From Amoebophrya sp. A120 (taxonomy: Eukaryota; Protista; Dinoflagellata): a DNA stretch of 64,000 bases. The stretch spans positions 7,671,429 to 7,735,428 of the forward strand of contig CAJINV010000001.1 of NCBI GenBank assembly GCA_905178155.1, written 5' to 3'. Positions 1 to 32,800 of the stretch are shown here, in pieces; the first letter of the stretch is position 1, and each line of letters begins with the position of its first letter. The translations under genes and the position numbers were made by a program. The notes below the pieces were generated by a model that worked only from the letters and a program-made list of their open reading frames with translations, was not told the DNA's origin and ran no database searches.

Positions 1-3000
1 ATAAATTGGCAACAAACACCAGCATCAACGTTAGTACGGTTTCGACAGCTCCTCGTCCTCTCCGAGGACGAGAGATATCGGCGAGCATCGATATTCGCGA
101 TCCCCTCTACCAGGAGCGCTACCTGAACAAGACCCCCTCTACCGCAGAGCTCATTTCTTCCGATGGAGAGACGGAACCGATTTCGTTCAAGCAGCAGCAC
201 GGAGCCGGGCTCCTCGCTGGCGCGTCGACGACTCGTTTCGGCTCGGGAAACGATATCGCAGAGGTATCGACGAGTGAGTATCTGGATCTAGCCACTCCTG
301 TCCGTGTCTCGTCTACCAATGAAGGCAGATTGTTTACCGCATTGACTGGATGCGACGCCCACGAGCAAGAGAAAACGTGGCCGAAACGCAATAGTGATGG
401 AAGCGTATCGGAGTGGAAATCCTGTCAGACGACGTGCCTCAAGGGGGGATCAGCATCCGCGCTGTACGATAAGGATCCGAGCTGGAAGCTTTACTTCCAA
501 GACGAGCCGGCCGAGTTCGAGCGGCCAACGTTCTGGCAAGCGTCGCCCAATGGTGACGACCAACACCCCACGGTGCAGTTTCACTTCAAGCAGGAGACAT
601 TCATCTCACGAGTGGTCGTGCATCCAGTGGCGGTCGGGGAGCATTCCGATAGTTGGTGTACTCACCGTGTCTGGCGAGCGCTCTATCTCGGCCATGACCA
701 GGTGCCCGACGGTGCGTCCACCTGGCATCGCACCGGCGTGCCAGACAAGCGAGCACAGCTCAACATCGGCATGGTGCCCGGAGCGGACGCATGCACGCAA
801 GATACGCTGAACGCGAAAACCGCAAACACGCAAGTTTACTGCACGAAGGTACCCGTGGCCAATTTATTAAATGCTCACTATCTACTTCGAACGGCTGGCG
901 AGCCTGTGAGTCCAGGCAGAGAGAAGAGAAGGGTAGGCAATTTGATAGGTATGCGAGGGCCGGGCTCCTCATCCTCAATGCCCTACTGATATGCATTTGC
1001 TTGGCGAAAAATTGGGCAAGCGCCCCGCCTCGGCTAAACGCCGCCCGACTCGATCGCGCGATCGAAATTTTCCCCACCCTCCCGCCCTGGAGTGGTATCA
1101 GGATCGTGCATATTCGCTGGCAGGCTTTGCCTACCCTCTTCCCCATTGAAGGAATATGAAATAAGCAGCTAGCAATACATGGTATAGGAGCGTCAGTTTC
1201 TGCATCAGTCTCTTCAGCGCCAGCTCGTTCTCACTCTCTAGCGAATCAGTTTTCCCTTTCGTACTGCACAAAGGTCCCGAGGGGAGGGAGCAACGACCGC
1301 ACCTGCTACACAGACGAGTTCGGGTTCTCGGACAAGGCCAGGAATACAGGGGAGCCGCGCGTAACGGGATGGTATCGCCGACTGGCGGTGGGCCCTGAGT
1401 ATATCAATGTGCGACGCATGAGGTTTGAGTGTGACCCGGTGAGCGTCCACGGAAGGTCGCTCGTGATTGAGTGGCCTTGGTGGGGGCATCTTCCGTATTT
1501 CTTTGCTCTGCGCCACGTCGAGATCCACGGCTACACCACAACCAGCACCACCACAGCCTGTCCGCTCCGGGCGGGTGCGGCGGTCGCGGTGCGTCGGGTT
1601 CTCAGGAAGGGAAACAACGCAACTGATGCGCTTTGCCGAATCGCGGCGGGCCCCGGGGTGAGCGAGACAGCCAGCGTCCGCTGTTGCCCTGACATTTCGC
1701 CGCAACAGATGATTACCATGACCAACTATCTCTGGGGAGCCAGCTGTGACGTGACGACAAACCTCGCGTACTGCGCGGCGGCGGACTTTTGCGGAGAGGC
1801 GCGGGTCCTGATGGAGGACGGCAGTCCCGAAATCAGCTCGCGTTTGTGCGCAACCTCCAGCGAGCTGCAGAGGCAAGAGGGTACGGGATGCGCGCTCGAT
1901 TGGGAGTATCTGTGGACGAGAGAGGAATGCTTCCTGTGCACGTGCGAAAACGGAGTCGCGGCGCCCTCCATGGCAGCCGGGTGTCCGGCGAGCGGTGGAA
2001 ACGTCTGCCTGGAGTGCGAAAACGGGTACACCCTCAAAGGAAACGAGTGCGCGCTCAAGGAATGTACCTGCCCCCACGGAGAACCCTCCGAACCGCACGA
2101 GTGCCCAGGAGACGGCGTGGAGCACTGCATAGCCTGCGATACAACGGGTTATTATTTGGAAGACAACAAGTGCGCGCTCAAGAAATGTACCTGCCCCGGC
2201 GACGGAGTCGGAGAACCCGCAACCGGCACCTTATCAGATGTGAAGACAGCTGCATCCCCCTGCCGAACTCCACCTCGTTGTAGTGCAACCCATAGCACAA
2301 CAAATACAAATGATAGAAAACCAAATTGTAACGCACTTATGTGAACAACAAATAAAAAATGCAGCGACATGATGAAAGCAGTACGAAAATTAGAAAAATA
2401 GAGAGCTTGATTAGTATCTGTATGACCACAAGTCCGCGAGGCATGAATGTTGTGTTTGGCATATTTATTAGTGTGAGCGGTCGTGTTGCCTACGAGAATC
2501 GAGGAGAGAGGGATTGTCTCTCACCTAATACCGGAGTTGCCCGAGTCACAATACGGAAGCCTGTGCGTCGTGTACCGCTCCTGGCTATGAGCTAAACGCT
2601 AATAGTAAGCAGTGCGAATGCACTGCGTCTGGCTTTCACGTGAACACCGATACAAACATCTGTGAGGGCAAGGTGTGTCACTGCGACAACGGAAATCCCG
2701 CGACCGGCACTGCGTGCCCCTCCCAGGACGATCACAAGTGTCAGTCGTGCTTTACCGATCAAGGCTACGTGAAAAACAACAACGACAGGTGCGTCGCGCA
2801 ATTCCAGTGCACCTGCAACGGCGGGACTGCGGCGACGGGCGACAGTTGCACTACTCACAACGTCGAACACTGCACGAGCTGTAACGCTAATCATGCACTC
2901 ACGCCTGTTAGCGGGGGCAAGAAGCACTGTTACGAGAAGTGTAAAAATAGGAACGCAGCGTGGTGCGCCAGCAACAGTGTAGATAATGGAAAAAATCGCG

Positions 3001-6000
3001 CTGCGTACTGGGACAACCCAAGTGACTGGGCGGGAAGCAGTGTCTGCGCTGCCAAGGCCTGCGATATCAGCACGGACCTGAACACCTGTTGCCGCCAGAA
3101 GTGTACCCATCCGGCCACGGGAGACTGCAACGGAAATCTCCAAAAATGGGACGTGGAGGAATACTCTTTCACCAAGAAGGGAACGCAAGGTCTAGCGAAT
3201 GGTTCCTGTCACAACACCGGAAACACCTGCGACGCTGCTAACAGCGACCATGCAGCTTGTTGTCAAAGAGATTGCAACATGAAAGACTGCAACGCGAAGG
3301 AGTTTGGGAACCCAAACTACCGAATGTATTTTTTGAAGCTCCACCCTCCGCATCCGTTCGTGTGCAGCGGCTACTTGTGCGGTGATGACGAATCTGTTGG
3401 TACTTGTTGCGAGAAAAGCTGCCAACGACCCAGCTCGCAGAACGACTACTTCGGCTATAACTTGGGCAGTGGGAAAGCTGTCGGCACGCTCTCGGACTGG
3501 AAAGAGGTGATCGGAGACGCCCGGCCGGGGGATTCACACAAGGACGAAAACGCCGGCGAGGGGCGCACCAGCTCGCTTCTGCAATGTGATTCCACCACCC
3601 ACATCGGGACCGCGTACTACCGGTGTACGAGCGCCGACGAGGAGCTGGCACTCACCGGCTGCCGGCAAAAGTGCAGTGCCACGGCCCTCAACTGCCAGAC
3701 CGAGCACAGTCGGACCCAGAAACCCTATTTCGATCCAGAAACCACCGTCTGTTTTTCAAACCGGTGCGACGCAACTAGGCAAGCAGACGTGGAGGCGTGC
3801 TGCGTTCCCAAATGCAGAGACGCCTTTTTCGGGAGCGGCAGCACGTGTCCGGGCCCCAGCGAAGGGTTTGTGGAAGGTGGGAATCGATCCGCCGCTGACT
3901 TCTGCTCTCCAGATTGTACAGCCGCTCAAGAGACCGTCTCCTGCTGCACCCGACGCAAAGTGTGCCCGCACATTCACCGCGTGACCCCAGACCCGCTGGC
4001 CATCTTTACGAGCGACGGAAATCTAGCCGCCTACTTTGGTGACGTCAACGAACACGGCGTCGTTGCAACGGAGAGCGAACTAAATTGCAAGCACGAAGAG
4101 TACCACATCAGTAATTTTGTGCCAATTTTCTCCCACCCTACTCTCATTTGGCTCCAACTGATTTTGCATCAATACCGATGATTTGTGTAGGTCGGTGGCG
4201 ACCTTGACCTAGGCGACGTCGCGCAGTAGTAGTTTGTAAAAGCTGCTTTCGTTTCTTCTAGCGCTAGCACAAAATCAGCTTGGCTGTGAAAATGCCTGGT
4301 CTCGAAGATAAGCTTGCTCGATTTGCATGATCTTGATCGTTGATACTTCGGTAGAGAGGCCCTAAGTCGTCCTGTGTCACAAATGAGATCGGGTCGGTGA
4401 AGATGAAATTGTCGTACAGGATACCAGCGTGTGGCTAAGCGGTCAATACGCCGTCTCCGGAACATTCTCCACAGAGCAGCGACTGAGGTTCTGTGCGGGC
4501 AGCGGCGAGTGCGACCCCGGTACTGCCAGCGCGCCGCTGGACGTTGTGGAGTGTTGCGAGCGGTACGAATCGCATGATGGATGGTTCTGTGACTCTTTCA
4601 ACACTCCGCGTTTCTACGCCTCTGAGGAAGCAGCCAAGCGAGCCTGCGACATTGGCTTCTGGGACACCGAGAACGAGGAGGTCGCGACGACGCTGTGCTA
4701 CGGATACCAGTATGACGGAAACTTTTTCAACTCCGAATTGCGAGAGACTTATGAAAAAGACAGTGCTGGTCTAGGTCTTGATGCTGAACAAGTTTTTGAA
4801 GTCTACGGGATGTGGAGCTTACTCCTGCCTCCGATTGAGCAGGTAGGCGACTCCGCCGTGATCGAGAAGGACGGCAAGGAGTATTTTGCCTACCAGCTCG
4901 CCGCAGACAACAGCAACATCGAGAAATCGAAATCGTCCTATCGACGGCATTCCAGTCATGGAATGAAGCCAAACTGCGCGGAAGTTTCAAGCAGCAGCAC
5001 CACTTCCAGTACGGAAAAGTATAACGCGACCAGCATTTCGGCCGGTGCGAACAGGGTGTTGTTAAAGAACTCGCGGGTGCCTGCGACGACGGAAGATTCA
5101 TTGGTGACTGTGAATTCCCAGTTCCTGAATGTTGAGCGATTGGCCGCATTGTTTCCACTGGAGGATGAAGTAGGTGGCAAACTTGCCGGGTTGTCCGAAG
5201 TTACCATCCGAATGCTCATGCATTCGAGTGAGGTGCAGGACCTGGAAAAAGAGCAGCAGGAGGCTGCATCATTGGAGAACGAGGAGAGCACTTCTGCAGC
5301 GGCTACTTCCGCGACCTCTAGTTTTGCAACACTCTTCGGCTCTGCTTTGCAAGAGCATGACGGCTCCTTATCAGACGAAGACCATCTTCACACGAGGAGA
5401 CGAAAGGCTGCAAGTCACCACCGGAATGAACTAAAAGAAGTGGGGTCGCACGGTAGGAAAGAGCGAAATAGCAGAAGGAGCTCCGCGGGAGGAGGAACTG
5501 GTCTCGGCCAGCAATACAAAGCAATCAAAAACGATACTACCTTTGGCGTTAAAGTGCAGCGAGCTATCGAAAGTAGCTTCAACCGATATCTCGTGGAGTC
5601 GGGACGGAGCTTCGATGTGATAGAGGGGTCAACCTTTACAGGTGGCGAGGATGGTGTCTCTTCAGCTGCGTCAAATGCAACCGAGGACGCTGATAGCGGC
5701 GGCGCGAGGCTGTCCTCTTCCTTGATACGGAAAGAGGAAGGTGGTCATGCTATCAACACGAATAAACGAGTGCAACAAGAAGGAGCACACACGAACTCCC
5801 TGGGTTCGCAGGTACGTAACCACAAACAAATGACGGCGCTTCATCTGGATTTGACAGAACAACAGCAGCAGCAACTTCGCAACACGCAAAGAATTGAACA
5901 GGCCATGGATGGTACCACTACAGCAATTGACCGCCTGTCAGTATTGGGCGGAAAAGTCGCGTCCGCAGACGAGGAGGGCGGGAACCCCTTCAACTTTTCC

Positions 6001-7332
6001 GCGTACTTCCTCGGCGCCATGCCGACGGCTGGCACCGAGGCAGCCAACAAGTTCCAGAATAACACAGAGCTGGATGAGATCATCACGAAGGCCATACAGA
6101 GGCACATTCTGAAGAAGTACCATAACGCGACCAAGAATACGACGACCTTGCGCTTGGACGGAATTTCCGTCCAACTGCGGCGCGAAGTTACTTTTCTCGG
6201 TATCGCGGATGCCAAGGCCGCTGCTGGTGGCGCGGATTCGCCGGCAGCGTCCTCGCTCCTTTTCGTCCAAGACCGGGAGCATCAGCAACAATTGGGCGCG
6301 CTGATGAGCGCAGAGCTCGACAAGGAACTTGACCTGGAGATGGCAACTTTTTTGGCCGCAGCCCGCAGGTCCAAGCTGCACCTGTCACCAACGTTCCAGC
6401 TGTTTCACGCCCGGAAGATGGAGAAAATCCTCATCGCCAAGCAGCGCAAGCGACTTGCCGAGGAAAACCGGAAAAGAGAGGCACGGCGGCGCGACCTGGT
6501 GGTGGAAAGCATGCGGAAGATGAAGAAGAAACAGCAGCTTTCGTCGGCGGGAGAGAAAAACAATAAAGGTCTTCACAAATATGCTGCGAAGACAGGAACT
6601 GGGGCGCAAGGGGGTGACCGAGCAGTTTCATCCGGCGCTAGAGGAGCAAGTGCGGAGACAAAACCAACAGAAAAATTGGTCACGCCGCGTTTCTCGTTCT
6701 TCGCCCTCCTCGAAAGACGCAGCCAGACCCTACTGAAAAAGGAAGCAGCAGAAAAAAACGCAACAAAAAGCGGCCCACCGTTCACTCTTTGGTGCGACTT
6801 GCAGCCCTCCGCGCTGGACGAAATCGACAGCTGGATCAATCCGTGTCTTGTGTTATTTGAGTACCCTGGTAGTATCGGGTTTGTGGGTCTCATCATTTCT
6901 TTCGTTATCACTTGTCTGATCGTCTGCCGCCACTACCTTTTGTGCAGACAGCGCAAGCGCCCCGCGGATCCAGCTCTGGTTCTGCTGGAGGGCGTCGGAC
7001 ATGAAGACGCACTTCTGGCGGGAGAATCGGCCGCTCCTGACCCCGCGGGTGCGCTGAAAAAGAAGCAGAAGAAGACCAAGAAAATGGAAAAGGAAAAGGC
7101 GGAGTCGAAAGTTGCGGGCATGAAATTGGGAATGACCACGGGAGGTGGGTCGTACACTGTGCAGCGTTCTCCAGCACTGCCCGGCGGCGGCGGAAGGCAG
7201 CCCGCAAACAAGGCACTCTCCGCCGCAGCTAGCGGTGGCTTTGCAGGGGCAAGTGCGGGTTTTGGCGCAGCTGTATCCGGCTCTGCTGCGTTCGGAGCGC
7301 CGAAAGCTACCCGTGGCTTCGGAAAGTACTAG
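1..7332 (+). CDS. Large Cys-rich type I membrane/surface protein (5' partial; 4 exons ~<1-848, 1274-2230, 2535-4111, 4428-7332)
   Basis: Four consecutive ORFs (6..989, 1388..2344, 2640..4181, 4429..7332) join in frame across three inferred introns. There is a discoidin-like segment (FWQASPNGDDQHPTVQFHFKQETFISRVVVHP), repeated furin/VSP-like Cys units (CTCPxGxPATGTxCPSxxxxCxSC), and a single TM helix (IGFVGLIISFVITCLIVC) followed by a basic tail. Confidence 0.75.
849..1273 (+). other. GT-AG intron bounded by a 17-bp direct repeat
   Basis: AAG|GTACCC...CAAAG|GTCCCG. tactgcacgaaggtacc (837-853) vs tactgcacaaaggtccc (1262-1278). Removal joins YCTK to VPRGGSNDR in the frame of ORF 1388. Confidence 0.75.
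2232..2530 (+). mobile_element. Aged TIR introner element (non-canonical intron ~2231-2534)
   Basis: Left end tatcagatgtgaagaca vs reverse complement of right end tattaggtgagagaca. TSD is decayed (cacct/ccgga). Removing 304 nt gives PATGT|SCPSHNTEACASC, matching neighbouring Cys repeats. Confidence 0.65.
4113..4423 (+). mobile_element. Aged TIR introner element (non-canonical intron ~4112-4427)
   Basis: Imperfect ~40-bp TIR (aattttgtgccaattttctcccaccctactctcattt / aaatgagatcgggtcggtgaagatgaaattgtcgtacaggata). Flanks are tcagt/ccagc. Removing 316 nt joins EEYHIS to VWLSGQY. Confidence 0.55.
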
Positions 7333-8693
7333 AACTGAGATTCTGTAGAATTCTTTTGGTCTCAACGTCAAGGAACTAATTATCGCTGTCACTATTCGCC
7401 GTCTTGTGCTCCATATGTAGTTTTTCTTTTTCCGATATGTCGTGCCTTGGCTGTGAATTTATAATATTAGTTCGTTATGATGTTCATGTTTCGGTGTGCT
7501 GTTTTTCTTTTTGGTAGTTTTCGTTTTTCGCTATTAATTTTTTCTTTGTTCTCGCCCAGAAGTTGGCGCTGAGCGTTTCTGCTTGATTTCAATCTACAAA
7601 GGTTTTCTGTCAAGAAGCACTGATTACAACTACAAGTTTCGTCAATCTAAGTACTCAATATTTCGTTGTCTTGTGTCTGATGAGATGTCATGGCACGAGG
7701 ACTGGCTCCCTCTGTAATTGCAATTGCTCGAGCGCTAAACGAAGAGCTCGCTTAGCGATCCCAACTGCACAAGTACCATATGGTGTAGCCGTCGCTCCTG
7801 TTTTTTTAAGTACTGCTCTCCTTTACACATAGTTGGAACTGGACGTTTAGTTTCGTGAGTTTGCTTTCTATTTATTTCGCTTTGTTGCCGCGCTTCGTCG
7901 CCGCTGCACTATAACTTTTATTTTCTCGGGTGGACCGAAGATTCAGATTGCATGATGACCTCAAAGCTGTCGATCAAAATGAAATATTTTGAAGCGGTGT
8001 ACGTCGCCAAGACTGACCACACAGCTGCCCTCACGGGCGCCACGTCTTCTCGCAGTTCCTGCGAGTTCGACCTAGGTGATAAAAAATATGAGTCAAAAAA
8101 CGTCAGTCTTTCTGTAAAGTTCGATTCGTTGCATCGTCGTGCGGGCTACTCGTTGATATTCGGTTGAATGAAATGTCAATGTGGTCTCCTATCGTTAAAT
8201 CGTGAGGTCCCGGTTTTGCCGCGGTCGTCAACAGTTCTCAGGCAATCGATCCAGCAGTATCCTACTCCTGTCTCAGTCGTTTCTGGTCTACCGTTGTTTT
8301 AGAAAAACTTCGGTTGCGTCGGCATTTCATATGTTGGGCCGCATCGCTGATGCCAGGGTCGTAACGTTAGTGTCTGATCCGACATGATGATTTTCAAACT
8401 TCTCAGTGTCGTCGCAAGCAGTCGTAGTATCTGTTGGTCTCCTAGTACTTCTAGTTGCACACTATTGGAGTTGGCCTTAAGATTCTTGCTCGCAATTTCG
8501 GCGGTACTTGGCTCTTTAACTGATCCATGCAGGGCGATGCAAGGCATCGAACTGCGCGCGGCCAGAAAGTGTGTGTGCTAGTAGCTTATTTATAATCCGG
8601 CAGTCCAGCAACAGCAAGCTCAAGCTGTGCTGACTTTGAGAAACACAAGCATACTGATTGCATTCAGCGCAAGCGCTGAATCCACTTTAAAAA

Positions 8694-11600
8694 ATGTTTG
8701 GTGGCGGGCGAAAGGTTCCATTCATGGAGGCTGTCTCCTACTTTGTGGCGACCATGGTTGGCGCCGTGATTTGCTTCTTGCCCGCGCAAGTCGCAAAGGG
8801 AGGCATCTACGGTGGCATGATTTTTGGTCTTGGCGTCGGCTACGTCATGTTCTGCATGGCGGCCTTGGCGGTGCCGCGATGCATCGACCTCTGCGAGGAG
8901 CTGGAGGATGCGCGCCAGCGTGGCGGCCTTGGGGAACAAGCAAATCCACCATCTCCAGGCGACGACGACGACGAGGAGACACAGATCGCACGAGAGGTGT
9001 CCAAGGAAACGGCAGCGGCCCTCAGCCTTCCTGCCAACGCGGTTCTTGGCAAAGGTGGACAAGAGGGAACAAAGAGTACTAGCCCAACAAAAAACCGAAC
9101 GGGTAGCACCGCTGCACAGGATCATAGTACAACAATCACAGATACACAACAAGCAGGAGCATCGGCAGCGTCCTCGTCTGCTAGGCAGGAAGATGAAGCT
9201 CCCACCCCCTCTGCGGTTAATACAACCCCGCGGCCGCCCAAGCCAGTGAGACCCCGCCCAGCTTTCCTGGGGCTGCCCGACGTCGCCGCGATTGCCTTCG
9301 GCAGCCGCACGTGGCACCGGGTCACGGTCGTCTGCATCAGCCTCCTGCTGACCCTCACCTGTTCGGTGTACCTGCTGATCTTGGGCGGCAGCCTGCACGC
9401 CACGGTCCGGGAGATCCGTGTGCTGACCGGCAACGACGCGCTGATGGCGACCCCGCCCCCCGTCGCTGTGCCGGGAGAGCTCCTCGCCGCCACCGCCTGC
9501 ATGGCGCTGCTCGTGCAAGTGCGCGATGTATCCGCCCTGGCGCGGCTCAGCATTGTCGGAACCACCGCCGTTGTCTTTGTGGTCCTGTTGTTCATTTGCA
9601 TGCCCATCTTGCTCGGATCGGAGCACATCGAAAAGGCACTGGAAGGTACTGATAAAGAAACTGTGTGTAGAAGTCGTGCAGTGCTGTCAAGTCAGTAATT
9701 TACTTCCTGCACAGCTTCTAGAGCTAAGGTTGCTCTGTCCCGCCTAGTTGCAACACACGATCATTGTTGAAGTTTATGTGCTTTTCACTGCATGATTTTC
9801 GTGACGAACGAGCAAAATTATACCCTTGACTTCAAAACGTCGTAAAAATTTATTGCAGGCAAGGAGCCCTTCGAGAAAGCGCAGCTGTCGCAGTTTCGAG
9901 AGGGACCGGGTTCGTCCATTCTGTACGGCAGCGGGATCACCCATGTTCTCCCTACCGGTCCGTCCAAGGTGGACGGGCCGCACGAACTCAGCGGCGCGGG
10001 TCGCAGCAGTGCGACGAACAGCGTGCTGGTTTGGGGCAAGGACTCCATCGTGCGCGAAGTCGTTGTGCACCCCGAAACGGAGTTTTTCTGGCAGGGCGCC
10101 AGCACGATCACGGAGTGCCTCGGTGTCGTCGGCTTCGCCTACGCCTGCGCCTTCGTGGCCCCCCATGTGCGCGCCTCCATGGAGCAGCCCCACCGCGTCT
10201 CCTATTACAATGAAAAATACCTCCACCCCCGAACTTTGGAGCATTTGTATTGCAAACCTCTCCAAATGAAACATTCGCCCTCTTGCATCTATCAGCATCA
10301 CAGGTTTCCAATCGTGAATAGCAAAAATTTGTATTGCAAAAGACCCCAGCAAGAGCGGCGCTTGTCATGCAAGCGATGCGATACACGCCTAGACTCTGCA
10401 TCAGAAAGATTCACACTTCTTTCATGCATGACAAAAAGTTTTCATTTGGAAACTTCGCATCACAGATTTTTCAATTTCAGGGGTGGGGGGCATTTTTCAC
10501 TGTAATATCTCCGAGGCCTTGTTCACCGCGAACACCCTGGTACTCTATGCATTGCAAATATGTCTGGGTCTGGAAACTTGTGATCCTAATTTATGAATTG
10601 CGGGGACACGGCAATAGGCAGCCACGCATGGCAAGTTTCTGGGCTCCTATGTGTTTCGCTTTCCGCATGACAAACTACATTTTTGCATGACAAACTACAT
10701 TTTTACAAACCGGCAGAAAATGGGGCCACGGAAGCGTTCTTGCTGGACATTACCAACATTTGCCCATGCAGAGCCGTCCTCTTGCCGGACACAACCAACA
10801 TCTGTCCGAAACAGCCTAGGGCCAAGACGACACCGTGAGGACGACCACAGGGGGTCCGTCTCAATGATGATGATGATGATGACAGGCAAGAGGGTCTTTT
10901 GCTGCTCACGCATTACAGGTTCAAGAATCATGTGAGACAAGCATGACAAACTAACATCTGCATTCTTCCAGACCCAGACATTTTTGCATTTGATATACTC
11001 GTCCTGTACGCAATTGTCGTCGTCGCGGGGCTGGGCGGTATCGGCTACGTGCGGCTCCTGGCGGCCGATGGCGATATTTTTCGGTCGCTGCAAGAGTTTT
11101 CGACCACCATCGTGAAGAAGGCAGAATTCGAGCAGGAGGGCGACTTGAGTCTGAAGCTCGCCGAATCCCGCGACGGCGAGTTCTTGCTGTTGAAAAACCA
11201 GGCGCACTACTACAACAACGTGCCGCGCGGCGACGTGCTCTCGCTGCTCATGGCCCTGCTTAGTTTGGTCAAGGTCTTCATCAGCTACCCCTTGAACATT
11301 TGGCCGGTGCTGGTGGAAGCTGAAACCCGCATGGCGCGCTGGCTGTCCGCGGGCGAGGAGGCGGACGAGAATCAAGACGCGGACGACGTGGACCAGACAC
11401 GCCCGTTATTGGACGAGCAGATAACTACCGGAGGAGCTACCAGTGGGATGAAGAACAAGGGCCAGGAGAATAAGGTTCTCCCCGGCCGCGTCCCCGTCCG
11501 GGTTGCGGTCGTTGCGCGTTTGCTCGTGGTGCTCACCACATTCATCATTTGCGCACTGTTCGGGTTTCAAATGCGGCAGCTCTCCGCGGTGGCGGACTTC

Positions 11601-11822
11601 ACCATCGGGACCGCGGGCGCCTACGTCCTCATTTTCCTCCCGCTGCTTGCCCAGCAGGCGCTGCAGGCCAAGTTGCGGGAGCGAAAGAAAACGCGTGCTG
11701 ATACGTCTGATTACCTGCAGATGGGCCGACATGGCGTCATCTGCCTCATGGGGCTCTCGCTCTCTGGACACGCGCTGATCACCGCCCCCGGCCGGATTAG
11801 CGAGGCGCTTTCGGCAATATGA
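8694..11822 (+). CDS. Amino acid/auxin permease (AAAP, Aa_trans) family transporter; exons ~8694-9645, 9859-10201, 10512-10544, 11000-11822
   Basis: TM1 motif AVSYFVATMVGAVICFLPAQVAKGG, then GVVGFAYACAFVAPHVRASMEQP, then SYPLNIWP. One GT-AG intron (9646-9858) and two TIR elements; their removal gives MEQPHRVSEALFTANTLVLVLYAIVVVAGLGGIG. Confidence 0.85.
10203..10507 (+). mobile_element. TIR introner element, family B (305 bp, TSD tctcc)
   Basis: TIR tattacaatgaaaaatacctccacccc / ggggtggggggcatttttcactgtaata. Perfect 5-bp duplication at 10198-10202 and 10508-10512. Confidence 0.92.
10546..10995 (+). mobile_element. TIR introner element, family A-related (450 bp, TSD tactc)
   Basis: TIR tatgcattgcaaatatgtctgggtctggaa / ttccagacccagacatttttgcatttgata. 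TSD at 10541-10545 and 10996-11000. Internal 20-bp tandem duplication gcatgacaaactacattttt (10665-10704). Confidence 0.93.
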
Positions 11823-12452
11823 AGAAGAACTTACTTTCTAACTCAGTTTCGATTATGATAATCATGTACTTAAAAATATGATAATTATGCGTTAACAATC
11901 AAGATCAAGATCGCTTTAACAAACACAAAGGCGGGCCCGTTCAGCTGTACCGGCTCGGTCTTTTTTCAATTTCTAATCTCATCTATACCGTACTTACACT
12001 CCACTTGTATTTTTGCTTTGTATCTATTCACCTGTATTTGTTTCAAGATGGCATCAAAAACCTGCTTAGGTTCTACTTTCTAGGTGGTAGCGTATTCTCG
12101 ATTGCATTAACTCCGGTTATCGACCTCCATTTCTATTGATCCTACGAGAACGAAGCAACATAGAAGCAAAGTTCTGCGCGCAGCTTGGACACCGTGGAAT
12201 TTATTGCGAACCAAAGAGGAGTTGGAGCTCCAGCTGCTGTTCTTTACCATCAACGAGCTCCATCAACAGAAAAAGTGTCAACAGGTTTCGATGTTTCTAT
12301 CCAAAAGTGCGCTCGACCTACGTAGCACTGCGCCGTCATTCTGGTCTCATTGCATAAGAGCGACAAAGTAAGATAAATACGTAGGAGCACATTCGGACTA
12401 CTACATACTTTGACTTTTCTGACTCTGATTCTACTATCGACAAAACTGCAAG

Positions 12453-13487: not shown

Positions 13488-14295
13488 TTCGTGACCGTCA
13501 TGCGTCTGCGCATCAAATCTGGAAAAATTTTCATCGATCATAACGTTAAGGTTAACGAGAAGTAGTACATTTATTTGTTGCTTTTTCGCGAAGCGAGGCA
13601 TGAGGCCCACCAATGAATTCGGCCTTGCGACTCTGAGGTGTTGTTCTGAACAATTCGCAGGAGTCCGACATATCGTTGCTAGGAGTTAATAATCGCATGA
13701 AGGCGTCATATAAATGTGCCACTCTTGATGTGAAGGCTAATGTCCGCTCCCGAGAGTAGAAAGACAAATGAACAAAGAAGTCGAGCGTCCCTATAGGAAC
13801 GAGCGTCCTTCGTTCCTATCTACCGGCTGGCTTTGCTGCAACTAGATTGAACCCGAAAATGAAATAACGGCTTCCTTTCCTCTACGACAACACTAGGTAG
13901 GTACCAACATCTGTCGAAATGATCTCCGCGATACTCAGCCCCATTGCTACCCCATTAACTTCATGTGTCTCGTCTTTCTGCAGCCTCCTCGACCTCACCA
14001 AATTTCCTAGCGAACCCACTAGCCTTTATTCAAGATCGACCCTACCCGGCATCACGTTTCTATCAATCAAAAAAGCTGTCTAGTCGTTTTTCTCCTTTTA
14101 CTCATTGTAGTTCGCACAAGCTTTCCTCGTCGTTGTCATTTCCTTTTGGTTTTCAGCGTACTATGAATTTTCCCAGCACACTTTTAGTAGACAAGACCTA
14201 GTAGAGCAGGTGCAGGACCTAACATCAAGGCACGAGCACCCCTTTTTTCGAGAGCGTTAGTGCAAGTCGACAAAAACAAACACCGACATAAAAAA

Positions 14296-14829: not shown

Positions 14830-14999
14830 GGGTCGTCGCGAGAGCTACCTGTAGAAGAACTCACGTGTCATTTGCTTGCTTGGACCATATTGAAGACCTG
14901 CCCTTCACCTTATTTATTTTCAATGCATGCCGTTGCTTTTTCTAGTAGCGAAAGATGAGAATGCTCGACTTTTTGACGCTACAATTATTCTCGGGGTTG

Positions 15000-16908: not shown

Positions 16909-17626
16909 TAGCACATTTAAAAACGGCAGCGCCCCGAATTCGCGGCGCCCTCGAGAAAAAAGAACTGTAGCCGGCCCCCGTAGGGCAGCGCTTGCTATCC
17001 CATTTTCGCCCGGGCATTGCAGAAACAGAGGCCACAGCGATATTGAGTAAACGTGGGCGCGTTGTGCTTGTGGGCCCTGTGCTTGTGGACCGGTACTGGC
17101 GGATCGCGTGCGCCCTGTTGGGAGTGCGGGCGACCGATGTCGTGCACGCAGCCCCGCTGCCGCGTTCTAGCGGGCGGCCCGAGAGAGGGAGCCGGCCGAG
17201 CGCAGCCCCTGCCGGCCCTCTGCCCGGCGATTCGCTTCCTTTTATGGGGCCCCATTTCTCTTGGTCCCGTTTTATGTATGGTTTGCGGGCTGGAGATACA
17301 GTGCCCGCCGCTGATCCCATACTCGGTCTCCGGCACGCAGAGTCCGGAGCAAGGCATGCAGCCTCCCGGGCGCGACGGTCGGCCGGGTGGCAGCGCCGCG
17401 GGCGCGACCTGGGTGGGCGGAGCCAAGGTTCCGGCGCCCGCTCTGCGGCGCTTGCCAGAGCGGGGGCGGTGGTTGTTGCTCCGCCGGCGTTTTCTGCTTT
17501 TGCCTTTGGGAGATTTCCTGTCTTTGCTTGGGGTCGAGCATTTATTTTCGCGGGACTGTAGCGCGATACATCGCTTCGTCGCGCCCGCCTGACGCTGTGT
17601 GTGCGCTGCCGTTTTTTTATTGGATA
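16909..17626 (+). mobile_element. Long GC-rich TIR introner element (718 bp) splitting Walker A
   Basis: tagcacatttaaaaacggcagcgc / gcgctgccgtttttttattggata (14-bp perfect core). Flanks are cggcg/cttcg. Confidence 0.8.
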
Positions 17627-18204: not shown

Positions 18205-18466
18205 TATCAACTGGAAAAGTGTCTGGGTCTGGAAGAATCCAACTTGTCATGCTGATTTTGGATTCTAAAAAAATCTGTATTGCATCAGCAGCAAAGAGAC
18301 TCCAAGTTTTGCTACACGGAAAGAACGTTTGTCATGCGGTAGGTGCATCAAGAAGCCCTCACAAAATCAGTGATGCTAGGGCATGCATCACAGACATCAG
18401 GAGTCAGGCAAAATGTGCATGACAAACCTGGCAATCTTCCAGACCCAGACACTTTTACACTTGATA
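18205..18466 (+). mobile_element. TIR introner element, family A (262 bp, TSD cgtcg)
   Basis: tatcaactggaaaagtgtctgggtctggaaga / tcttccagacccagacacttttacacttgata. TSD at 18200-18204 and 18467-18471. Reverse-complement homologue of the 31506 and 31814 copies over their full length. Confidence 0.93.
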
Positions 18467-21749: not shown

Positions 21750-22724
21750 AGACGATCTCTTTTGCGCTCTTGCAACGATTTCCTGAAACTGTAACACACT
21801 CAGAATCATGAAGTACAACATGATAAATATAGATGGGTGAACATTTAATGAACTTTTTCTGAACGAACATTGAAACCACGACGATTACCAGCTATCCTCC
21901 AAATATTGAGTAAGTAAACTGCATATACATTGCAAAGAGTTTATAGAAATATGTTTGACGCGCAAACATGCATACACAAAAGTTCAACTTGAAAGAGAAA
22001 TGCGAAGGAATGTAGGCAAAGATAACGCTGAGATTGATGAAGCAAGTACTGAGTTTGCGTCAATCATGTAATTCGTGTACTCTAACTGTTGGGGGTGTCA
22101 TACGACTAAGCTCTGCTCGCGTGAGTGTGTCAGTATGTAGGAAATCAATGACTCACAAAATGCAACGAAATATACCGCATGAGACTCCGAGAAGTTGTTA
22201 GTTCGATATACTGATACTGCAGCAGGTCTACTCTGTCAGTTCTCCGGTTGTATTCGTATTTCTATCAGTCTCGGTCAGCGGTCTTTCGCCTTCCGTATTC
22301 AAACCGTACGCCTGTGTGTATTCGGTACATTTCTTTCTTGTTTTCTTCCCGCACAAACAAACGCAGGAGGCAGGAGTAGTCCTTACTTGCCGAGATTGGT
22401 TTTTTAAGAAATCCTCGTTTTTATGAGAAAACGGATGCTGCGACAGCGGGGTTACAACTTGGTTTTTTTTATCGTGTCGGAGCATTTTTTTCTTCGAGAG
22501 GGAGCGGTATTCAACGCGCGCTGTGGATTCTACTCTAGTGTCTTTTTGATTTTGACAGGGTGTTTTTCGCTGAGTGTCCTCGTCCCAATCAAACTTTCTT
22601 CTGTACTCTTCTGCTAACAAATATTGATTTTATTTTCGTTCTGTCGACATTCAAATTAGATTTTTAAATGGCCACGTACTTGTTCTTTCATCTTCTCTTT
22701 CACAGTTAACATGAGGTTCTTAGT

Positions 22725-25274: not shown

Positions 25275-26976
25275 GGACGATCTCTTTTGCGCTCTTGCAA
25301 CGATTTCCAGATATTGTAACACACCGGAAATCGTATAAGCATAGAAACTTTTTCTGAACGAACTCGAACATAAAAAGTGAAGTTAGTGCATATGCATAGC
25401 GTAAAGTTTCAAAATGTGCATAGAAATGGGTCTAACGAAGAAGCAAAAGAATATAGACAAACATTAAATATTGAGTTCACGTCAATCATGTAACCCCTGT
25501 ACCATAGCTGTTGAATGTCTCATCCCCATGTGAAAATATAAATTATGGGCACACAGAAAAAACAAAATGCGAATGGCCGATGATAATTTTAAGGATGGAC
25601 GAGAAGATACATGGACTTTGTGTTCCTCTGGTCCGTGATAGGAACATCGATGTCACCATCCATCCCGGATCATACGACATAATTATTCAGGGGGTTTCGG
25701 ATATGATTCTCATTGATATCAAACATATCGAAATCCATTCATTCTGTGAGAAGAAGAACCAGAAAATGATGATAAATGAAATATTTTCGAATTTATTTCG
25801 ATTTTCCTATTAATACCAAAAAAGAATCTGATTCTCAAAATTTCATATGATTTCATATGATATTGATTTATGAAAATGGAAAAAAATATTGGAAACATGA
25901 TGGATCCAAGATTTTCGAAAAAATTGTAATTCTGATTTCCAAAAAATTTTCGAAAATGATTGATATACCCAAAATTTTTTGAATATTTATTTCAGATTCA
26001 TGAAAGAATTCCATCATGGATATGATAATTTCGATCAAAAAAAAATGGGATAGAGAAAATGAAAAAATTCAATGTATCCCCATGGAATCGGAATCGATGG
26101 AATATAAATATATTAATCAAAATCATCCAGAATCATCCATCGACATAGTTGGGGTTCCGGGCGCTCCGCCATATTGTTGTGGGTGGGATTCTGTTGGCAA
26201 CAGACGGAAGCTTTTCGCAGAAGACGAAGTGGGGCGCCGCGGCTACCGTGGTTATTTCCCTGCAACAAACCCGTTGCTGCGCGTACAGACGGGCGCGAAC
26301 AAGTAGCGCGTACGCCATGGAGCGCATGGGATTCGAGCGGGGACTCACGGACCTGTTGCACTCCCGCTGGGGGGGCACCGAGCGCAAGCAAAAAGAGGTG
26401 CTCGTCCTCGTCGACAGCCTGGGTCTTGTGGAGCGCTTGGAAAAGCTCCTCAGTACAGTTTTAGATGGGGTGGGGCAGGATGTGCGCTTGGCGGAACTCG
26501 TAGGACAGGTCGCGAGCACCTACAAGAGCGTCACAATCGCTTACATACCGGCGCACTGCTCTAACGACGCCAACGAACTCGCGGATGCCATCTGCGGCGC
26601 AGCGGCAGAAGGCCTGCCACGGGAGGACGAACTGCAGCTGCTCGACCCTCCTTGCCACGAAGAAGTGAAGGAGGCAGTAGTGGCACAGCTCGAGGCGGAG
26701 GAGCGGGAGGCCATTGCCCGCCTCGCCCAGGAGGGGTCAAGGTCGGGGGAAATCATCCTCGACCTGAACCTCACGCGCAAAAAGGTGAGAGACATTTATA
26801 GGGCGGCCAGGGGGGAAGGGAGATGGTTACAAAAAACCCTTGGCGACATAGCAGGGGCCACAAGATTCAAGACATTGCAGGCGGGCGGGATTACGACCAA
26901 ACTCTGCCCGAGGTGCAAAGATGATTGAAGTGGACTCATGGACCCACGTACGCCTATGCCACGAGTACAGGGACAT

Positions 26977-27738
26977 CAACGGGATCGGCCCCCAGTAGTC
27001 AGAAAAGCAAAAAAATCACAAAAGCCGGAAAATTTTCGCGCTTTTAAGTTTTCGCAGGGTTTTCGCAGTTCTTGCAGCCGCTCGCTGGTGCGTTTTCTTT
27101 TTCTGGTTGTGTGTCTTGGGTTTGTGGGTTGGGCGGGAAACGCAGGCTTGGGCGCAAGGGATTGGAGTGGGTCCGGCAGAGGGAGCCCATGTTGCCGGTG
27201 TGTGTTTCGGGATGGGAGAGGGATTTTGGGTGGGAAAGTTTTGGGTGGGCGAGTGGCCAATTAATTCTTCGACAAAAAATCGCCTTTGTTGCGACAAAAA
27301 ATCTGAAATAATTAAAAAAAATCGGCTTTCGGCCGTGGTTTTTTTTTTCTTAGGGATTTCAGGAAGAAGCCGAAAAATGTCGCACCCGTGTCGCACCGGT
27401 GTCGCACCCGTGTCGCACTCATGTCGCAAAGAAAGCAATTTTTTGGCGCAAATTTATTCGGTGTTTTTCTGTTTTTTCGGTGAAGTTGTGTTTGCCCGAA
27501 CAAAAGTTGCGTGCTCGATTTCATGTGGCGCAGTTCTTCGAAAACCCCGGAGCCCACAGGTCCGCAGCCTGTTGACAAAGCCCCGGCGTTATTTTAGGGC
27601 CTACAGATTTCCTATCGAGCGAGCCCCGGCGGAGTGGTTTGGCACAATAGGGTGGCAGTGAAAAAATTTTTTTTTTCGTTTTTCTTTTGGGATTCATGAT
27701 TTTTTTATTTCCGGGCCCATTGGGGTCCGATCCCGTTG
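26977..27738. mobile_element. hAT-like MITE (762 bp) inserted in the LINE ORF
   Basis: TIR caacgggatcggcccca / tggggtccgatcccgttg with CA...TG ends. 8-bp TSD agggacat (26969-26976, 27739-27746). Removal restores CHEYRDITGLQDAEDIFDFLR. Confidence 0.9.
27378..27428. repeat. 11-bp tandem repeat (tgtcgcacccg x ~4.6) inside the MITE
   Basis: Read directly from the sequence. Confidence 0.9.
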
Positions 27739-29819
27739 AGGGACATCACCGGCCTCCAAGACGCGGAAGACATATTTGACTTCCTGCGAACGGTGAGGGA
27801 CGCGGAGGTAGCAAGCGAGAATTCCGAGTCAGACCCGGGCATTTCGGGGTCAGAGGGCGAGGACGAAGAGGGACAAGCACCACAGCAGACACAAACATGA
27901 AGCAGAGCCCACGAGGGCCAACACGCGCCAGCCAGCCACGGAAACCGCCCGTGCAAATCGCGAAGCGAGGCGCGGCAGATCTGGGGTAACGGGGATCGAC
28001 CGATCGGTAGCCGGTTTGCTTGGCGGTTTTGGCGCCATGCGCGACCGTTTTCTACCATACAGTCGGGGGAACGAAAGGGCCAAGTACTACCGTTAGTGTA
28101 CTACTTTCTTGACTATGCGCCGGATACGAAAAACCACTATTCACACTGGCCACCTAACCAAGGTGCCTGGAGATCGCAAATGCCGCGCCATCCCACCCAT
28201 AGGCCGGCCAAGGTGCCTTGATCCAGAGAGGCATCTTGAAAGACTCTACCAAGTTTTGTTTGCAAGGTCCGTATAAAAATAACGATCTCCGCGAAGGGGA
28301 TGCCGACGGCGACAGGGGCGCAAGTGTTCTAAATGACGATCCTAACCCGCAGTGCATATCCATGCACAATAGATCCACAATCTCGTAGTTCGTCGTCGGA
28401 AGGTTCGTCCATTTACTTGTGCCTCGTGTGCATTCATTGTCGTTGCCCGATGTGGAGCTCGTCAAAACGCCGTACCAGCGGCGCAGGGGGTGCTGCGGCC
28501 ACTCGCCGCGGAACCCCGGGAACCGCCGGCCGAAACCGCGGACCGGAGCCCACGACGGTAGGACAGGACACGGCACTACCGTGTCGTCCTGCACCCCCCC
28601 CCACAGAGTCAGGTCCCATACCGGTGATCCTGGGGTGGCAACTGGGGAAACACCTGCGGGTACGAGAGGACAGACGACAACCACACCACAGCTTCCCTTA
28701 ACCTAGAGTAGTAGATCCATCGACATATATGCCGGAGAATTGAATCTTGTTCATTCTTCCTCTATTCATGAAAAAAAATGATATCCCTATGGATATGCAT
28801 ATGATAATTGGATTCGATATGATAATTAATTTTTCTTGAATCAAAAAAAAACCCAACTACATGAAACATCGATGAATCCCAAAAGCATACCTATAAATCC
28901 GAAGAATTCGATATTTTCTTTCTTTCTTTCTTGTCATGTCTGGGCATGACTCAAATTATCTCATAGGCCCGGTCCGAAATTATCTTTCTTCATTCTCATC
29001 TTCTCATCATTCTCTCAAAGATGGATTGATGAAGAAATGAAAAAATGATATTCGAAAAATAAAGATCATCAGGTTCTGGATCGAGAATCACAAATTCGAT
29101 ATTTTATTGCAACAATGGATTCACTCATATTTTTCCGAATCAAACAATTATTTTTTTGGATGGTTTTCACCTTTCGAGAGAATTGGATGATGATGAGATC
29201 GAAGACAGAATAAGAATTTCGGATTGGACCAAAACGACAATGAATTTGAATTATGCACAGACATGGAAAAAAAGATGATTTTCAAAATCTCATTTGAATT
29301 CAATGAAAATTTTTCCTCAAAAATTTTTCATTTCTTTCGTTCTTTCTCATCCTGTCTGGATATGATTGAAATTGTGAAATCGAGAATGAAATTTTCATGA
29401 TCCTGCATTTTTGATACCTTTGACCTAAAAAAAAAATATTAAAACAAGAAAATCTCCATCCTCATGAATAGAATCATACTTCATCAAAAATTTAAGAGAA
29501 TAGATGAAAAAAAATAGTTCGTGTGATAGGTTCAAGATTCTTTCTTTCTCTCGTGCCTGGGCATGTTGTCAAAGGTTCAAGGTCCGAATTGGTCCGTCAC
29601 ATTCTCTTGTTTCATATTCCTACGCTCAACATTCCATATAATTTGTTGTTCCAATTTCCAGATGTGTGTTATATCTCTCTGTTGATATCATCCAAACAAT
29701 TGTTTCGTTTTCTTTCATCTTCCTCTTCTTGTTCTTGTGTTTTGATCCATGAAATCATACCAGAAAAATTCGTCCTGACATACCATGGGTATAGAGTACT
29801 TATTCAATTTCTTGTCGAT

Positions 29820-32800
29820 TCATTCCACCGACCTCTCAGCGACCTTGAGTGTGTCAAGAATCTCGGCCCAGATTTGATCGTCCGGTTTCGCAGTTGTCGC
29901 GACGCCGAGGGATTTCAAGAAAAATCGTGGTTTCATGTTGGTGGTTTGCTTTTGTGGTTTGTCGCTTGCCAAACCCGGAAGCAATTTGCACAAAAGCACC
30001 ACAACTTTTTTCCCCCGCGCCAAAATTTCCGCCCTCTCTTGCGCCTGGTCGCGTGCCGTCCAGGCCCGGTGTACCACGTCCAGAAATTGAAACAGAATAC
30101 TCCGCTCCGCATAGCGCTGCCTCGTTTCCTCAAAATCATTCACGGCCTTTGTAGATTTTCTCTCATCCTTGAGCCGCATCTCGGCGCCGGGAATGGTGCC
30201 GTCGCAGAACCCCAGCGGATCGTGAAACCAGTACGGCAGAAATGGTGCTTTGAGTAGTTTCTCCTTGTCCGTGTGAGGTAGATTTTTTGTAGTTTCGATT
30301 TCCGCATTGCGCGCGAATTCGAGCAGGTCATGCGCCACCAGAAACCACTCCCTTTCCAACAGCAGGTCCAGCAGAGATTGTTCGACAACCACAGGTCGTG
30401 ATCTTGACCCTGAAGCCTTTTCTTCCTGTGCTTTTTTGTTCCGGTTTTTCTCGTTCCCCAAAGTAGCCGCGGTGCTTTTTCTACCATCGACACTTGTTGC
30501 ATTTTTCTCTCTTTGTTCTGCATGCAGTACTTCGTTCGTCACGAAGCGGGCGGAGCCGAAGTCCTCGGCCTGAACCAATGCCTTCGTAAGGAATTCCTTT
30601 CGCAGCAGTGCCCGTGCTCTTCCCTCGTTGTCCGCTGGAATCCGTTATCAAAATGAAAAATCCCCCCTCCCCATATCAAAACGGAAATTTGTGATGCTGA
30701 TTTGTGGCCACAAATCAGCTTTGTATTGCAGAGAGGCACTGCGGCCAGATCCCCAGGCTAGGCAGGGGCGTATGGGTCTCTAGTAGGCCAGCATGGCAAA
30801 CGACCCCCCTTTAGGCCCAACAGCATGAAAAACCGCTTCCATAATGGGGCGGAAGCTTCTGCCCTTGTCTTCTTGCAAGACGCAACGCAAGTTTTTGAAT
30901 ATATACCTTTTCAATATGGGGAGGGGGGATTTTTCCTCTCAATATCCTTCGCAACTGCGCTAAAGCTGCTCGCCGGTCGCAACCGGCATGCTTACCGGCT
31001 TGGTTCAAACCTTTACAGAGGGCTTTATAACAGAGAATGCGTTTCGGCTCGTCCTTCCTTGCTGCGAGTCCAAGCCCGAAGCAGAGGTCATCCGGTATTT
31101 CATCAGACAGACCAGACGTCTGGTGCGCAGCGTGAGTATCCCTACCCTGTGCGACGAGTTTTTGCTTTGATAAATCCTCTTCCATTGTAGCAGTAGTTCC
31201 TGAAGAAGATGTTGGCTCTGGAAGTACCTTGCGGTCCGAAGACGTTGACAGGCGGGAAACCCTGTGGAGGTCGCCGACAGGATTCTCTTTTTCCACCCCG
31301 GCGTCTCGTCTGTCCTTTCCCACAACCAGCCCCGCAAGAATTGCGGATGTGAGCGCCTTCGTACGCCTCGCGGTCAGAATCTTGTGTCGCTTGCGGATGG
31401 CGGCGTGCAAGGTCTGCAACGCGGTGTCGTTGCGGCACCGCAACAACTTCGGCCTGCACTTTGTCGTGTCTCCGGGCCGCACGGGAATCAACACATATGG
31501 GTCCTTATCAATTGCAAAAGTGTCTGGGGGTGGAAGATTCTGACACTTGTCATGCACGGTTTGCATGAGCCCTGATGTCTGTGATGCATGCCCTAGCATC
31601 GCAGATTTTTTGAGAGCTTCTTGATGCCTATCCCGCATGACAAATGCCCTCTCCATGTAGCAAAAATTAAATTCCTTTTGGTACTCATGCAATACAGATT
31701 CTTCTGGAATCCAAATGCAGCATCACAAGTTGCATTCTTCCAGACCCAGACATTTTTACATTTGATAGTCCTCGACGGCGCAGGAGTGGTGGGAATCGCC
31801 TCCGATGGTGGACTATCAAATGCAAAAATGTCTGGGTCTGGAAGAGTCCGAGTTTGTCATGCACATTTTGCATGACCCGTGAGGTCTGTGATGCAGGTCC
31901 TAGCATCACAGAGTCTTTGAGGGCTTCTTGATGCTTATCACGCATGAGAAATGCCCTCTCCGCGTGCCAAGAACTGGACTCCTCTTGCTGCTCATGCAAC
32001 ACAGATACTTTTAGAATCCGTAGACAGCATTACAAGTTCCACCCTTCCAGACCCAGACATATTTGCATTGGATATGGACAGCCCGCCCTGGTGCACGGAA
32101 AAGTGCTGCACAGATGTTTGCGTGGACTCCTGGCAGCGGCAGTTCCAGAACGCGAAAAAGTTGTACTCCAGCTCTAGCAAAGATGCGTCCAACAGCTCCC
32201 GGCTCGAGAAAACCTCGTCCGGGTCGAGCGGCAGATCAACTTCGTCGGAGCAGGCCAGACTTGTCTGCGTGTGACCACCGACCGCGTTCGTTTTCGCAGT
32301 GGCTGTGCTCGACGTCAATTTGTTCCTGGCCGCCGAGGTCGTGCACGACGTCGAAGAAGAACTAGAACTAGCTGTACCCATGCGGTCGTACAACGAGGTT
32401 GCCTCGCTGCTGTTCATCTCCAGAGCGTCAGCGTCAACTTCGATCTGCAAACTGTCCTGTGCGTGCAACAGGCTTAACGAGGATCCAACTGACGCTGCAC
32501 TCCCATTATGCGGCGCAGGCAGTGACGTGGAGAAAGACATGCGGCCGTCTGCAGCGCCGAGGACGTTGTCACTGGAGGTCCTCAACTCTGGCGAAGAATT
32601 CGACTGGAGATTTCGTGCAGAATGGCCCGCTTTATTCGGCAGGACGAGATCTTCATGATCCGTTGAACACATGGATCGCTTGTCGCCGTAGGCGACATAG
32701 ACTCGATTCAAGAACTGCACCGCTTTGCAGTAGTGCTTGTCCGCCATGCTTAACTCGCGCCAGGCCCATTTTTCGCCGATCCGCGCGCACGTCAGGGCGT

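Follow-up and report, generated by a model that had tools for sequence, protein, structure and literature searches.

Farhat et al. 2021 (PMC7789003), in the sections available, report 29,850 repeated introns in Amoebophrya sp. A120. The inverted repeat (IR) of these introners consists of TAT, 7 nt and at least three A, and the accompanying direct repeats (DR) are 3-5 nt long at varied positions, with 5 bp given in the legend of Fig. S19. The same sections assign the IR/DR layout to 15% of canonical A120 introns as well, and credit A120 with 83 of 89 spliceosomal proteins, while neither U1 snRNA nor a minor spliceosome was found. The hairpin idea is already present in the legend of Fig. 4; a statement of orientation independence or of a fixed cut register was not found in those sections. 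Gozashti et al. 2025 (PMC12130899, available portions) describe massive intron gain in A120 from DNA transposons with terminal inverted repeats (TIRs), and suggest that elements flanked by TIRs and bearing Copia/Gypsy-like ORFs may act as mobilisers. The literature searched on introners and nonconventional introns gave no resolution of the excision mechanism.

The window, the whole 64,000-nt stretch of A120 DNA that was analysed, holds nine inverted-repeat elements in four genes, each referred to here by its first position. They are almost certainly A120-type introner elements. Proteins encoded in the window match public entries labelled Amoebophrya sp. A120 at 100% and 99% identity, and the element ends carry the motif already described for A120, which makes this a known system: the intron class was published for A120 by Farhat et al. 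2021 (PMC7789003, sections available). The link to Amoebophrya is therefore closer than the resemblance that the first-pass annotation had drawn. The window elements share with the introners of that report, as far as its available text describes them, the IR motif, the direct repeats, the lack of fixed splice dinucleotides, the presence in genes that mix both intron types, a MITE-like make-up without transposase, and a length comparable to the mean NCI length of about 240 nt. There is no difference in kind from what those sections describe; in the window family the target site duplication (TSD) is uniformly 5 bp and abuts the TIR directly. The A120 introner families in the available portions of PMC12130899 (including family 38) have the same TIR DNA-transposon origin. 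Because the class is published with so many repeated introns in A120, finding nine elements in one window comes as no surprise.

Recomputation from the sequence placed all nine elements at the starts and with the lengths first claimed, and TSDs do range from perfect to largely decayed. Five are perfect (10203, 10546, 18205, 31506 and 31814, 5/5), and the remainder match at 4/5 (30646), 3/5 (4113 and 16909) and only 1/5 positions (2232). Direct repeats of the A120 kind (3-5 nt at the exon-intron boundary) are present, as perfect 5-mers in 5/9. The two TIRs of an element agree at 15-18 of 20 nt in seven cases, at 11 in 2232 and at 9 in 4113, and the window elements have inverted repeats of the A120 kind (8-20 nt or more, both ends). 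TAT followed by 7 nt and at least three A is found at 13 of 18 window ends; the exceptions are 2232 and 4113, each at both ends, and 16909 at its left end. In a scan of the window for TAT...ATA pairs with TIR of at least 15/20 and TSD of at least 4/5, thresholds that miss 2232, 4113 and 16909, 6 pairs were found; the same scan on 20 block shuffles gave 0 pairs in 18 and 1 pair in 2. RNA folding predicts end-to-end pairing in eight of the nine elements and in neither of two ordinary introns. The combination of TIR, fixed-length TSD and no coding capacity is that of a MITE. The elements, being short, non-coding and inverted-repeat with a 5-base target duplication, are likely non-autonomous DNA transposons. 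A transposase was found neither in the window nor in the 5 metagenome copies that exceed 400 nt, whose longest open frame is 150 aa, and a search of 139 metagenome copies, limited to 1400 nt, gave no autonomous partner with the same ends. Viral contigs gave no TIR match, and no Rfam families were found in the window. The motif CATGACAA, which lies some 50 nt short of the 3' end, was considered as a branch point and rejected as unproven, since in the 262-nt family its reverse complement occupies the mirror-image position; this mirrored placement fits a subterminal transposon motif.

Many dispersed copies exist beyond the window, and their 5-bp duplication has no target preference. An exact 5-bp TSD flanks 124 of 139 metagenome copies, and a TSD of 6-9 bp flanks none. 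Elements 10203, 10546 and 18205 are repeated in the genome, with a summed depth in dataset X5 of 10^4-10^5 in their bins; at 2232, 4113 and 16909 the X5 contigs are unbroken and the summed depth, which is not copy number and does not include 30646, is about 25. A codon-model frame caller returned frames for 46 of 73 copies examined, and 35 of the 46 need the extra 5 nt modulo 3 (p = 4e-9) and 11 do not. On 300 control breakpoints drawn from its own training ORFs, 261 of 268 calls were right. The 35 copies lie in their coding frames in the same orientation (18), in the opposite one (12) or unclearly (5). A six-frame test for any open frame on 88 metagenome copies gave no discrimination (+3, 45; +4, 43; +5, 47). 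Selection on the RNA stem left no signal in 38 strand-called young copies (28 G-U vs 33 A-C mismatches), a comparison of low power.

Other described systems resemble these elements in part. The nonconventional introns of euglenids, in the available portions of PMC11282704 and PMC12501133, also have a TIR hairpin that joins the ends, TSD-like repeats and GT-AG introns alongside, and a further likeness is that the length of the spacer between motif and cut matters. Their signature is CAG/CDG...CTG/CHG, whereas that of the window is TAT...ATA; the end consensus here begins TATCAAATGC, and the CDG...CHG boundary is not found. Circular products are known in euglenids. Introners of Polarella, Symbiodinium and Aureococcus (bioRxiv 10.1101/2020.10.14.339549) have the same origin from DNA transposons with TIR and TSD, and some classes function in either orientation. 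They carry GT/GC/GA and AG or recruit them from the TSD, whereas 30 of the 35 A120 copies that need +5 have no GT/GC/GA-AG register. As first described, none of the nine window elements has a GT-AG register inside its TSD; this was seen on both strands, and GA-AG occurs in one (31506, sense strand). IS3EU/GingerRoot elements (PMC10045372) share the TA..TA termini, which are found at 17 of 18 window ends and at all 278 ends of the 139 copies (a search that required TA). Their TSD is usually 6 bp as against 5 bp here, and membership was rejected on TSD length (6 bp in 0/139, 5 bp in 124/139).

Gene 2 is amino-acid transporter-like, with a PF01490 match under the curated cut-off. It carries, on the plus strand, a canonical GT-AG intron of 213 nt (9646..9858) and two introner elements with perfect 5-bp TSDs (10203..10507 and 10546..10995). 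A contig (record 4) of assembly X1, which is likely RNA (its origin is guessed, and no listed dataset is recorded as RNA), lacks 978 nt of this region, the sum of the 213-nt intron, 310 nt (10203 plus 5) and 455 nt (10546 plus 5). This is a net length; the contig's middle exons are not displayed. The contig picks up again at 10996. Between 10990 and 11005 there is no AG ending; the 3' end of 10546 is therefore not AG. Six homologues align gaplessly across 10203 and 10546 once each element and 5 nt are removed, and with the GT-AG alternative for 10203 (10197-10515) 3 residues are lost and the score falls in 5/5 homologues. Raw-read runs X9 and X10 contain 37 and 9 matching reads, all of them partial and uninformative about junctions.

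Gene 4 is poly(A) polymerase-like (PF22600) and has three introner elements on the minus strand. These are 30646..30944, removed as 304 nt, in which the one TSD mismatch is synonymous; 31506..31767, of the 262-nt family, removed as 267 nt and with one GA-AG register possible; and 31814..32074, a 261-nt member of the same family removed as 266 nt. The public protein P0005 follows element plus 5 at all three, and the public gene model may share its data with the likely-RNA contig. Removal from RNA at non-GT-AG ends is thus read from the contig at 10203 and 10546, and from the public protein only at 30646, 31506 and 31814. For these five elements the evidence supports that they derive from a transposon, that one TSD copy goes with them on removal and that their ends are not GT-AG. 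Canonical GT-AG introns had been said to coexist with the elements in the same genes; this is so in gene 2 and none was found in gene 4.

The proposal that deletion of element plus 5 restores a frame was borne out in seven of nine elements, where long frames are joined, and not at 18205 (best 49+48 codons). Frame joining fixes the removed length only modulo 3. Gene 1 encodes a Cys-rich repeat protein and contains two decayed elements on the plus strand. The second (4113-4423) is enclosed by a likely canonical, in-frame GT-AG intron of 328 nt (4100..4427). The public protein P0006, the gene 1 model, reads HE-D-VWL at this point, as expected for intron 4100-4427, and a piece of a likely-RNA contig starts at 4428, which fits 328 nt and not 316 (leftmost placement by the tool). 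Element 4113 is therefore most likely cut as this GT-AG intron and not as element plus 5 (316 nt), so that a nearby GT-AG junction, named at the outset as a refuting case, most likely holds here; removal at non-GT-AG ends was not found for it. Its hairpin is still predicted (20.6 pairs). Element 2232 (2232..2530) is single-copy and would be removed as 304 nt. Stretches of 357 and 1493 open codons are brought together by this removal and the Cys-repeat spacing of the gene is preserved, and two in-frame GT-AG alternatives within 30 nt both give stops. No stem is predicted for 2232 (0.5 pairs end to end), so that the stem would be dispensable if 2232 is spliced.

Gene 3 has what we take to be a helicase-like motif I; no homologue, informative Pfam family or solved structure was found for it. 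Its elements, both on the plus strand, are 16909..17626, a single-copy element of 718 nt with left end TAG, a putative intron whose removal with 5 nt joins 117+57 codons, and 18205..18466, a 262-nt family element that is 79-82% identical over its full length to 31506 and 31814 and lies outside any intact reading frame. The host gene is decayed. For 16909 and 18205 the chances are about even that they are plain MITE insertions in dead genes, never spliced. An in-frame stop precedes 18205 and no long frame follows its removal, the likely-RNA depth over 16025-17815 is 0-1.6, and the gene lacks detected homologues. No RNA junctions were seen in the likely-RNA assembly at 16909, 18205 or 2232. The same explanation perhaps extends to 2232, as P0006 begins at 3279, downstream of it; the joined frame and retained Cys-repeat spacing speak against this, and genes 2 and 4 cannot be covered in this way.

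How the spliced elements leave the RNA can be stated with less certainty. The first-pass annotation proposed that the TIR stem and the TSD direct excision, which may be the case. Taken as a whole, the mechanism is probably that of a relaxed spliceosome, which likely recognises not GT-AG but the symmetric ends of the element. A DDE transposase acting in trans would make the 5-bp staggered cut. If one cut lay at a set distance from the TAT end and the other at a set distance from the ATA end, with the two distances adding up to 5 nt, the pre-insertion mRNA would be restored for any target sequence, and either insertion orientation would be tolerated because the ends are symmetric. The major spliceosome would do the chemistry, the hairpin would help by drawing the ends together, and ageing copies could shift to nearby GT-AG sites, as at 4113.

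It is rather unlikely that the same elements are removed without a spliceosome, by a hairpin-recognising endonuclease and a ligase that release linear or circular RNA, a route that has been proposed for the nonconventional introns of euglenids. Such enzymes would suit the lack of fixed boundary dinucleotides, the tolerance of both orientations, the strong predicted stems and the failure to find U1 snRNA in A120 (PMC7789003, sections available), and euglenid introns, which likewise have TIRs and repeats resembling TSDs, leave as circles. Against them stand the near-complete set of spliceosomal proteins in A120, including U1-70K, U1A and U1C, and the missing signal of stem selection; the IR/DR layout of canonical A120 introns, to which 4113 is apparently alike, suggests one continuous system. 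Least probable by far is that every element leaves by ordinary GT-AG splicing at sites close by, with TIR and TSD a mere trace of origin: stop-free in-frame GT-AG pairs do lie within 30 nt of 7/8 elements tested, and 4113 most likely uses one, but against it stand the absence of an AG where the contig resumes, removed lengths of exactly element plus 5, the 3-residue gap at 10203, the three agreements of P0005 and the 65% of RNA-supported A120 introns that are non-canonical. For 10203 and 10546 this reading is already largely refuted.

It is tentatively suggested that the splicing code of A120 works as a ruler. The machinery would bind the symmetric TAT-N7-AAA ends and cut at one fixed register, whatever the target sequence, the orientation or the identity of the TSD, and mobilisation would fall to a transposase, integrase-like, that has TA..TA ends and makes 5-bp cuts. 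At 2232 the Cys-repeat pattern favours an intron start 1-2 nt before TAT and an end 3-4 nt after ATA. The window supplies test cases, as the cut position, masked where the TSD is perfect, would show at 2232, 16909 and 30646, whose TSDs are decayed; under a ruler, the register of decayed-TSD copies would be directly readable from RNA-seq. Were this code true, any insertion would be silent at once, and ageing copies would later be handed to GT-AG splicing; 4113 resembles an element taken over in this manner. A splicing signal independent of orientation and target would explain how a transposon could come to occupy tens of thousands of exons while its host survived.

All nine elements listed in the first-pass annotation (named by their starts: 2232, 4113, 10203, 10546, 16909, 18205, 30646, 31506 and 31814) were located at those positions. 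They are members of the introner class of Amoebophrya sp. A120, already known and here met in the strain where it was first described. The encoded proteins carry the A120 label (in database searches, two of the exons hit entries named 'unnamed protein product [Amoebophrya sp. A120]', 100% and 99% identical) and 13 of 18 element ends match the published inverted-repeat motif, so the elements are a rediscovery of that class. In the available text of Farhat et al. 2021 (PMC7789003), 65% of RNA-supported A120 introns are non-canonical, 29,850 are repeated, and a hairpin model is proposed. Introner elements there have direct repeats of 3–5 nt (5 bp in the legend of Fig. S19) and inverted repeats that start with TAT, followed after seven nucleotides by three or more A. 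The available part of PMC12130899 describes A120 elements with terminal inverted repeats (TIRs) and integrase-like ORFs; its file 3 yielded no 'Amoebophrya' row. The introners in the accessible portion of bioRxiv 10.1101/2020.10.14.339549 recruit canonical splice sites, whereas the window elements do not. TA..TA ends are shared with IS3EU/GingerRoot, as far as described in the part of PMC10045372 available, but the 5-bp target-site duplication (TSD) of the window family does not fit membership.

The TSDs range from perfect to largely decayed, as had been described: 5/5 bp at 10203, 10546, 18205, 31506 and 31814, 4/5 at 30646, 3/5 at 4113 and 16909, and 1/5 at 2232. TIR identity over 20 nt is 15–18 in seven elements, 11 in 2232 and 9 in 4113. 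A scan of the whole window for TAT...ATA pairs with TIRs of at least 15/20 and TSDs of at least 4/5 gave six; 18 of 20 shuffled controls gave none and two gave one. No register within the TSD yields GT-AG in any of the nine, also as claimed, and 31506 has a GA-AG register. Elements 18205, 31506 and 31814 are 79–82% identical to one another. None of the nine lies beyond the window's midpoint; the very long open frames at 37820–45358 (2512 aa) and 48483–53861 (1792 aa), with DCX and C2 domains, are element-free.

For the seven elements in genes 1, 2 and 4, long frames are joined when the element plus one TSD copy (element+5) is deleted, and not by deletions 1 or 2 bases longer or shorter. The claimed restoration of frames does not extend to gene 3: deletion gives no long frame at 18205, and at 16909 it yields 117+57 codons, with an in-frame stop further along the gene. 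These two elements sit in a decayed gene. The left 5-mer of 16909 (16904–16908) recurs perfectly at 17630–17634, 3 nt past the right TIR, and removing 726 nt, with this perfect TSD, would keep the frame just as 723 nt does.

Four runs were aligned over window positions 1100–19000. The GT-AG intron 12784–12990 is absent from the assembled run X1 and retained in contigs of the assembled run X5, and therefore X1 is read as spliced RNA (its RNA status is a guess) and X5 as DNA. X1 record 4 spans 8421–9643 and 10996–12170 with 374 letters between, so that 978 nt are missing; this total equals 213 (GT-AG intron 9646–9858) + 310 + 455 nt, the last two being element+5 for 10203 and 10546. The record picks up again at 10996, and with no AG ending within 10990–11005, element 10546 has a non-canonical 3' end. 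Of nine homologous proteins, three fragments were set aside (two 100% identical, one of 295 aa); the other six show no gap over either junction, and a GT-AG alternative at 10203 loses three residues and scores lower in 5/5 comparisons. P0005, a public gene model rather than a read, follows element+5 at 31814, 31506 and 30646. Net removal with one TSD copy thus holds at 10203 and 10546 in X1 and at these three in the P0005 model, but most likely not at 4113. No RNA junction turned up at 2232, 16909 or 18205.

There the first-pass annotation, which otherwise described real elements mostly correctly, most likely misread the junction. The public protein model P0006 reads HE-D-VWL, matching a GT-AG intron at 4100–4427, and X1 record 2 starts at 4428 with 144 letters preceding. 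Joints elsewhere (9643, 10996) are placed leftmost; by the convention inferred from these, the record would start at 4423, 4425 or 4429 under 316-nt models and at 4428 under the 328-nt intron, although a 316-nt model placed rightmost would give 4428 too. The case for cutting as a 328-nt GT-AG intron is strong but not final, and P0006 and X1 may share data. A nearby GT-AG junction is thus most likely used at 4113 and not at 10203 or 10546. Folding prediction still pairs the two ends of element 4113, which fits the inverted- and direct-repeat (IR/DR) layout of 15% of canonical A120 introns in the accessible text of PMC7789003. At 2232 both neighbouring in-frame GT-AG pairs produce stops. Registers 3–4 give ATGTSCP, which comes nearest to the repeats ATGTACP and ATGDSCT of the same gene, a hint from sequence that the cut may fall there.

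The family is repeated beyond the window. X5 depth is ~25 at 2232, 4113 and 16909 and 10^4–10^5 in bins with 10203, 10546 and 18205, and up to 167 contigs diverge from the window sequence at one TIR end. At 5523–6777 and 7883–8265, X5 also contains a second variant that differs by substitutions and small indels; depth is raised there, and the variant may be a duplicate or another allele. In the raw RNA run X9, reads match the TIR with other flanks at 10964–10996 and 18221–18253 and none fall on exons; therefore a related genotype has the same family. Five of 12 X9 molecules stop at 18221, which lies 16 nt within the TIR; this number is too small for interpretation. The further TIR copies looked for were found: a pattern scan of 16/64 parts of a metagenome collection gave 148 loci with 139 distinct complete copies. 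An exact 5-bp TSD flanks 124 of the 139 and none has one of 6–9 bp; no target-site preference was found among them. Ninety-four align to 18205 at 66–94%, on contigs that may be another strain. Viral contigs gave no family match. With a codon model trained on 12 ORFs of the window, the host frame could be called on both flanks in 46 of the 73 copies with enough flank: +5 modulo 3 is needed in 35 and the other classes in 8 and 3 (p = 4e-9); longer flanks gave 22 of 31 called, of 69 copies. Both orientations relative to the host frame occur among the 35 (same 18, opposite 12, unclear 5), and 30 lack any GT/GC/GA-AG register.

Other repeats were also seen. A 764-nt element of another family (26976–27739), with 43-nt inverted ends starting TCAACGGG and a 6-bp flanking duplication, lies in a region that resembles a decayed retroelement and carries an RNase H domain (PF00075 at 26149–26925). 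On the minus strand, a long intron-like gap beginning GT (60630–61400), with an 11-nt inverted repeat at ~60697 and 61389–61399, may be a canonical intron that contains an element. Region 17695–17810 has a TAT-type right end at ~17807 and no clear left end, and 18700–18790 is a repeat fragment without TIRs (X5 depth ~8,000 at 18744); the first-pass annotation has neither. An intronless gene of ~860 aa is present in tandem (19164–21749 and 22710–25274; 81–93% identical in blocks), its first copy without a Pfam match. Two adjoining 36-nt hairpin-like repeats close the window (63919–63994).

The elements would be mobilised by a transposase in trans. Their symmetric ends would set both cuts, at distances from the ends that add to 5 nt, and a relaxed major spliceosome would do the chemistry. 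Such a spliceosome is suggested because 83/89 spliceosomal proteins were found in A120 and introns with the IR/DR layout form a continuum with canonical ones; U1 snRNA was not found, according to the same portion of PMC7789003. The main rival, by analogy with suggestions for euglenids in the available parts of PMC11282704 and PMC12501133, is that removal may be independent of the spliceosome. Guidance by the TIR stem, as first proposed, is opposed by sense-strand G-U mismatches that do not exceed A-C (28 vs 33, 38 copies) and by 2232, which has no predicted stem. A literature search found no paper resolving excision of A120 non-canonical introns, and the accessible parts of PMC12787238 and PMC9860276 hold nothing further on mechanism. 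The copies with decayed TSDs make the cut register testable.
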